From Escherichia coli (GTDB lineage Bacteria; Pseudomonadota; Gammaproteobacteria; Enterobacterales; Enterobacteriaceae), in NCBI RefSeq assembly GCF_003334255.1, contig NZ_QOWU01000012.1: DNA of 64,000 nucleotides; one strand, given 5' to 3'. The position numbers and the translations under genes were made by a program. This document shows, one piece after another, positions 44,376 through 44,500 of the stretch; position 1 is the first letter of the stretch, and the number at the start of each line of letters is the position of its first letter. The notes beneath the pieces were generated by a model, which searched no databases, was not told the DNA's origin, and saw only the letters and a list, made by a program, of their open reading frames with translations.

Positions 44376-44500
44376 GGAGTTGTTGGTTCGTTTTAACGGT
44401 TGGTGATATCACTATAGATATTGATCATTAAGTTGATTAGACCCAAAATCATGATTAGACCTATCATTTAAATGATTAATAGATTGTATGGAGATACTGA

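Follow-up and report, generated by a model that had tools for sequence, protein, structure and literature searches.

A 70-bp stretch conserved between the divergently transcribed genes ycjY and pgrR of Escherichia coli (positions 44411-44480 of the 64-kb stretch of DNA analysed, hereafter the window) probably serves the LysR-type repressor PgrR as its operator and overlaps the back-to-back promoters of the two genes. Within this core, two exact copies of the 10-mer TGATTAGACC would stand at the centre of a group of (A)TGATT/ATCAT half-sites. The core is under strong purifying selection, because it has been conserved while its flanks and the third codon positions of pgrR have diverged, and because it is nearly uniform within E. 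coli. Binding of PgrR to the spacer and its autoregulation are already published; what comparative sequence analysis would add is the anatomy of the half-sites and dyads and a cross-genus footprint, as the sources consulted stop at the resolution of the spacer. The finding is quite likely correct but ordinary, namely a normal LysR-type operator that overlaps divergent promoters.

The features of the locus are collected in Table 1; adding 1347490 converts window coordinates to those of K-12. From 44300 to 44560, the window is identical (100%) to strain ATCC 8739, and direct reading of positions 44400-44500 gives ttggTGATATCActatagatattgatcattaagtTGATTAGACCcaaaatcaTGATTAGACCtatcatttaaaTGATTAATagattgtatggagatactgaATG. 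The genes ycjY (minus strand) and pgrR (plus strand) diverge across 137 nt, an arrangement that is kept at all orthologous loci; the 5' boundary of ycjY lies at 44363 or 44375, depending on the start. PgrR is annotated as 'DNA-binding transcriptional repressor PgrR', and both the N-terminal HTH_1 domain (PF00126) and the LysR substrate-binding domain (PF03466) are present in its homologues. A search for RNA elements across 44250-44650 yielded no Rfam match at E<=1.

Table 1. Features of the ycjY-pgrR locus in window coordinates.
Feature	Position	Strand	Description
ycjY	43443-44363	-	alpha/beta hydrolase; gene 1 of the repressed ycjY-ymjD-ymjC-mpaA unit
ycjY-pgrR intergenic spacer	44364-44500		137 nt, 33% GC; K-12 ycjY start used
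TGATATCA palindrome	44404-44411		exact only in E. coli and Serratia PL17
Conserved core (ACTATAG...TGATTAAT)	44411-44480		presumed PgrR operator and both promoter cores
Proposed ycjY promoter	44411-44439	-	-35 TAATCA (44439-34), 17 bp, -10 TATAGT (44416-11); putative start ~44404
Imperfect palindrome ATCAT-TAAG-tTGAT	44424-44437		architecture like that of 44463-76, 39 bp away; right half begins copy 1
Direct repeat copy 1, TGATTAGACC	44434-44443	+	near-invariant; preceding base T in Escherichia, A in all other lineages
Predicted sigma-70 pgrR promoter	44438-44467	+	TAGACC (44438-43), 18-bp spacer, TATCAT (44462-67); putative start ~44474
Direct repeat copy 2, TGATTAGACC	44452-44461	+	other lineages keep only (A)TGATT..C
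15-bp dyad TGAT-N7-ATCA	44452-44466		centre 44459; 4-N7-4 geometry; encloses all of copy 2
Perfect 14-bp palindrome ATCATTTAAATGAT (ATCATTT/AAATGAT)	44463-44476		centre 44469.5; overlaps predicted pgrR -10 and start site
Third related element TGATTAAT	44473-44480	+	right palindrome half plus AT; invariant
pgrR (ycjZ)	44501-45400	+	LysR-type regulator, 299 aa; ATG at 44501

The preliminary description had placed two direct repeats about 18 bp apart upstream of pgrR, and this is borne out: ttgattagaccc (44433-44444) and atgattagacct (44451-44462) have the exact 10-mer in common, whose copies follow each other at 18 bp from start to start with a gap of 8 bp; neither strand of the window contains a further exact copy. 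The third, related tgattaat element that had been claimed is also found, 21 bp past repeat copy 2. The tgatatca palindrome does exist, but it lies outside the interval that had been given for the array (44433-44480); it is partially retained in two other lineages and has been lost from the largest clade. By itself, the repeated 10-mer is only mildly unusual, because, when the dinucleotides of the 137-nt spacer are shuffled 5000 times, an exact direct repeat of at least 10 nt with a spacing of at most 60 turns up in 59 cases (1.2%), and because five exact repeats of at least 10 nt with a spacing of 11-60 occur across the window. TGAT/ATCA is found nine times in the spacer against an expectation of 3.75, a number attained by 6 of 5000 shuffles, and no other part of the window contains a cluster of at least five ATGAT/ATCAT pentamers per 137 nt. 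Since this clustering is accompanied by a position and spacing that are conserved in the orthologous spacers of other genera, the repeats go beyond chance.

When genomes were scanned with PgrR, divergent ycjY-pgrR pairs were recovered from Citrobacter, Kluyvera, Pseudocitrobacter, Shimwellia, three Serratia genomes, and MAGs, with protein identities of 84-89%. The recovered pairs represent at least five lineages, in which the third codon positions of pgrR are identical to each other at a fraction of 0.42-0.53. In the spacer alignment, 57-65 of the 70 core positions (81-93%) of five non-Escherichia lineages are identical to those of E. coli, while the flanks of the spacer have diverged, with identities of 0.51-0.66 over 35 bases on the ycjY side and of 0.25-0.55 over the 20 bases that precede the ATG of pgrR. 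A metagenome scan with the query TATCATTTAAATGATTAATB returned 91 matches, 82 of which were chance matches in unrelated AT-rich DNA; the remaining 9 are true spacers and contribute one additional (sixth) lineage, which keeps copy 1 and the ATGATT of copy 2.

Conservation is not evenly distributed over the core. Its most conserved stretch is TATCATTTAAATGATTAAT (44462-44480), and the heptamer ACTATAG (44411-44417) does not vary between lineages. Copy 1 hardly changes from lineage to lineage and has the form ATGATTAGACC, the first A of which is a T in Escherichia. For copy 2, the large clade has TGATTGGACT, Serratia PL17 has CGATAGGACC, S. proteamaculans has TGATTGGTCT, and the metagenome lineage has TGATTGAACC. 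Because its AGACC tail thus varies elsewhere, the 10/10 identity of the two copies is peculiar to E. coli/Escherichia. The unit that is repeated across lineages is (A)TGATT, with three direct copies at 44433, 44451, and 44472 and spacings of 18 and 21 bp; each of the three ATGATT units is immediately preceded by CA-W4-N.

Within the species, 4477 of 5221 complete E. coli genomes share an identical core, and the differences between K-12 and the window (at 44384, 44487, and 44515) are all located outside of it. The core variants that were sampled fall mostly into the 8-bp gap between the copies, namely A44445T, which is carried by strains such as O157:H7 380-94 and JML285, and C44450T. One sampled variant, G44440A, is located inside copy 1 and occurs in 54 complete E. 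coli genomes. Strain WP2-W18-ESBL-10 carries both gap variants; its ycjY is annotated as a pseudogene with an internal stop.

The usual geometry of LysR-type binding sites is an interrupted inverted repeat. The 18-bp spacing of the direct repeats, which the preliminary description had regarded as fitting for a LysR-type operator, does not amount to an integral number of helical turns and is unusual for the two-fold symmetric DNA-binding dimer of LysR-type proteins; the bases that do fit are dyads that coincide only partly with the repeats. The assignment of the region itself to PgrR is upheld by published PgrR binding and autorepression and by the conserved core. In every lineage, the best dyad is ATCATTTAAATGAT (7/7 pairs in 14 bp; 7/8 in an 8-pair scan), which is invariant except for one T->G exchange in one MAG and is the best candidate for a high-affinity recognition site of PgrR. 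The dyad TGAT-N7-ATCA ranks second in E. coli, the Citrobacter-like clade, and Serratia PL17, and is among the top five dyads in all five lineages scanned (5-7/8 pairs); it has G/C at the canonical T/A (+/-6) positions. A literal T-N11-A dyad is absent from the spacer, where the best palindrome is a T-N10-A of 14 bp. The palindrome at 44424-44437 was considered as a further strong dyad but was downgraded, as its left half is degenerate between lineages (ATCAT/ATTAT/ACCAT/AACAT).

There is published evidence that PgrR acts at this spacer, where Shimada et al. reportedly recorded the protein by genomic SELEX in 2013. The ycjY/ycjZ spacer is described as a genomic SELEX target of PgrR (YcjZ) (PMC5934670), and PgrR is also placed at ycjY/ycjZ by a high-throughput (HT) dataset in RegulonDB, which lists ycjY-ymjDC-mpaA (repressed), ycjG, and ycjXF-tyrR as the regulon. 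The DAP-seq signal of PgrR at the pgrR promoter has a fold change of 5632, comparable to that of LacI at lacZYA (4413) (PMC10505187, Suppl. Data 6). In the PPTP-seq experiments of the same study, knock-down of pgrR de-repressed the pgrR promoter (FC_Glu 0.97, -logP 10), which was confirmed with a strain in which PgrR is tunable; the ycjY promoter reporter gave values of 0.60/0.28/0.34 on pgrR knock-down, which were not called significant (PMC10505187). The published binding data (SELEX, DAP-seq) resolve the spacer and not the individual repeats. Although ycjG and ycjXF-tyrR are listed as targets of PgrR, motif copies in the window are confined to the ycjY-pgrR spacer; neither ATCAT-N4-ATGAT, nor the 16-mer ATCATTWARATGATTA, nor ATGATTRGAC was found beyond chance, either in front of ycjG or at any other place in the window.

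Both promoters can be tentatively placed within the core. In a consensus scan, the predicted pgrR promoter TAGACC-18-TATCAT matches the consensus in 9/12 positions; both hexamers are conserved, and the same hexamers have been given as a 'constitutive promoter' of pgrR (PMC3946193). The predicted -35 hexamer TAGACC includes the GACC tail of copy 1, and part of the repeat may therefore be promoter rather than operator. On the opposite strand, TATAGT is proposed as the -10 hexamer of ycjY because ACTATAG is invariant; the resulting promoter, TAATCA-17-TATAGT, has 8/12 matches to the consensus. In both predicted promoters, the distance between the hexamers falls within the 16-18 bp that are usual for sigma-70. 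The published version of the ycjY promoter, ATGATA-19-TCTAAT (PMC3946193), has a spacer of 20 bp on recount and a -10 hexamer that lacks the A at position 2. The RpoD, RpoE, and RpoH holoenzymes alone yield SELEX peaks on the spacer (PMC3946193, PMC5493296); those of RpoE and RpoH have intensities of 17.2 and 4.4, respectively, and both pgrR and ycjY have been called RpoE-dependent (PMC5493296). A search of the spacer for a sigma-E promoter (GGAACTT, 15-17 bp, TCnaA) revealed none that is convincing, the best match being 8/12 with a poor -10.

The transcription start sites of Kim et al. 2012, which were converted from U00096.2 (window position = coordinate - 1345514), include none within the spacer. 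The same dataset contains a weak antisense start in pgrR (~45042, minus strand), which was assigned to ycjY and implies a leader of 667 nt, a start of mppA within the 3' part of pgrR (~45248, plus strand), and a start at ~43191 (minus strand), 23 nt before mpaA. In view of the last of these, mpaA may be transcribed from a promoter of its own that does not depend on the ycjY operator.

The predicted promoter elements raise the question of what the conservation of the core reflects. If the repeats were mainly promoter elements, with TAGACC as the -35 region of pgrR and the complementary TCTAAT/TAATCA serving ycjY, the core would be maintained by RNA polymerase holoenzymes. The 9/12 match of the pgrR hexamers, the published listing of these hexamers and of TCTAAT as the -10 of ycjY, and the holoenzyme SELEX peaks agree with such an explanation, but two promoters specify only about 24 bases, whereas 70 are nearly invariant, and the regions between the hexamers are conserved to the same extent as the hexamers themselves. 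The hexamer-bearing copy 1 is indeed better conserved than copy 2; promoters, however, are not characterised by repeated ATGATT/ATCAT or by a perfect palindrome. Neither the RpoE peak, which has no sigma-E-like promoter as its counterpart in the spacer, nor the published ycjY hexamers with their recounted 20-bp spacing add much weight, and a purely promoter-based origin of the conservation is unlikely. As autoregulated LysR operators normally overlap the promoter, the promoter reading is compatible with an operator, and for copy 1 it is partly true.

The AT-rich TGAT/ATCA array might also be the site of another protein, such as Fur, H-NS, or UlaR, which is very unlikely. Although the 19-bp Fur consensus GATAATGATAATCATTATC finds a best match of 13/19 on the minus strand, at the lower limit of the 13-14/19 or so expected of an iron-regulated Fur box, this is weak in TGAT-rich DNA with a GC content of 33%, and a search for Fur binding or iron regulation at the ycjY-pgrR locus produced no evidence. 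Knock-down of hns de-represses the ycjY promoter in PPTP-seq (0.88, called; PMC10505187), but H-NS does not explain an invariance that extends base by base, and the DAP-seq signal of UlaR at the ycjY promoter (57.5; PMC10505187) is about 100-fold below that of PgrR at the spacer. Moreover, the core travels with pgrR across genera and plasmids, as expected of the site of a cognate regulator. It is more improbable still that the repeated 10-mer is a product of chance or the relic of a duplication without a function of its own: the number of comparable repeats in the window, their frequency in shuffled spacers, and the restriction of the 10/10 identity to Escherichia would all allow it, but in six lineages with saturated synonymous sites, both copies have retained their position, their distance of 18 bp, and their ATGATT core, and the polymorphisms sampled in E. 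coli lie mostly outside the copies, with one rare variant within copy 1. Chance is thus largely refuted as an explanation by the pattern of conservation.

For the PgrR operator, which is the preferred reading, we infer the contact bases, the start sites, and the binding of a PgrR tetramer from the arrangement of the half-sites. One dimer of the tetramer would bind to ATCATTTAAATGAT, perhaps in register or alternating with TGAT-N7-ATCA, and would cover the -10 hexamer TATCAT and the start site of pgrR, resulting in negative autoregulation. The other dimer would occupy the less symmetric left part of the core that includes copy 1 (about 44424-44443), where it would cover the pgrR -35 hexamer TAGACC and the -35 region of ycjY and thereby repress ycjY-ymjDC-mpaA. 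The assignment of the two dimers to the right and left parts of the core is tentative and has a somewhat less than even chance of being correct. If TATAGT is the -10 hexamer of ycjY, then the centre of ATCATTTAAATGAT would be located at about -65 and the repeats at about -57 to -29 relative to the start of ycjY, which would match the classical arrangement at LysR-regulated promoters, with a recognition site and an activation or secondary site. The result is a base-level model of the operator, with its conserved half-sites, its dyads, and their overlap with two promoters, that would be useful for the mapping of PgrR boxes or the search for a ligand; its importance is modest, and the general view of LysR-type regulation is unchanged.

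LysR-type transcriptional regulators (LTTRs) that act on divergent promoters typically have operators with a recognition site near -65 and an activation or secondary site near -35, as exemplified by BenM/CatM (ATAC-N7-GTAT, sites 1-3), CbnR, OxyR, and IlvY. PgrR conforms to this type in that it is a LysR-family protein transcribed divergently from its target, and in that the spacer combines one good dyad with less symmetric half-sites within about 60-70 bp. Also in agreement are the overlap of the dyad with the predicted pgrR promoter and the negative autoregulation of PgrR shown in the literature; if the predicted start of ycjY is correct, the position of the palindrome centre at about -65 would agree as well. 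By contrast, the best dyad of the pgrR spacer, ATCAT-N4-ATGAT, is an even-centred sequence of 14 bp with a T-N10-A instead of a T-N11-A motif, three of the half-sites point the same way, at spacings of 18 and 21 bp, and PgrR has been described only as a repressor, without a known inducer. Another parallel is CysB, whose half-sites, defined by footprinting, are convergent, divergent, or direct, with some direct repeats, and extend over 40-60 bp. Both are LysR-type proteins with arrays of similar half-sites, some of them directly repeated; the half-site sequences are unrelated, and the arrangement in the pgrR spacer, unlike that of CysB, is deduced from the sequence. With the recorded PgrR binding region, the proposed operator shares the locus, the regulator, and the repression of ycjY-ymjDC-mpaA and pgrR, the records having the resolution of the spacer.

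The genomic context of the operator differs considerably between E. coli and the other lineages. Outside E. coli, synteny is limited to ycjY and pgrR. A second alpha/beta hydrolase usually comes next, and in some cases there are also an SDR and a flavin oxidoreductase; mpaA, mppA, and ycjG never adjoin the pair. The ycjY-pgrR unit occurs in many genera with a PgrR that is ~88% identical, and it is also found with an intact operator on IncF plasmids of Klebsiella, beside IS1 and Tn3-family genes (e.g. L016, Klebsiella variicola plasmid NZ_CP103422.1, 4211-7101; related loci are H49-H52, L002-L009, and L013). The unit looks horizontally mobile, and the conserved regulon looks like a hydrolase cassette rather than a set of peptidoglycan genes. 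In E. coli, the small gene ymjD (43390-43443, minus strand) is similar to residues 1-18 of the second alpha/beta hydrolase of a Citrobacter locus (L002; 67% identity, E 3e-5), and ymjC (43190-43372, minus strand) aligns with residues 18-77 of the SDR oxidoreductase encoded next in the same locus (46% identity, E 7e-12). By these similarities, ymjD and ymjC look like decayed remnants of the hydrolase/SDR cassette, the decay of which would have brought mpaA into the ycjY unit. Because of this decay, and because mpaA, mppA, and ycjG are never adjacent elsewhere, the link of the PgrR regulon to peptidoglycan may be specific to E. coli.

A more far-reaching interpretation combines two proposals. 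PgrR may bind to three directly repeated CA-W4-N-ATGATT units with spacings of 18 and 21 bp and not to two inverted dyads, and its ancestral role may have been the control of a mobile ycjY/hydrolase/SDR cassette, with the link to peptidoglycan recycling via mpaA arising only in E. coli, after the cassette had decayed. That both an unusual direct-repeat binding mode and an ancestral control of the mobile cassette apply together is rather unlikely.

The N-terminal domain of the regulator shows a pattern that parallels that of the core. Among the lineages that keep the core, residues 1-66 of PgrR, which comprise the HTH domain, are identical in 59-61 of 66 positions, and the stretch MAQSALSQIVRR is invariant. 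In a more distant homologue with 58% identity to PgrR (locus L010), the equivalent stretch of the N-terminal HTH reads LSQSALSQIMQR; the YcjY homologue of this locus is 75% identical, and its spacer (L010 3868-4000) is unrelated and contains a 14-bp palindrome, TTGTTAATTAACAA. The covariation of the HTH stretch and the core would lend weak support to a coupling of protein and site. The spacer of L010 also contains a TGATT-N8-AATC element that resembles positions 44434-44451 of E. coli. In Serratia sp. PL17, a second LysR gene (L013 6055-6948, minus strand), whose product is 48% identical to PgrR, is located ~1 kb downstream of the pgrR orthologue.
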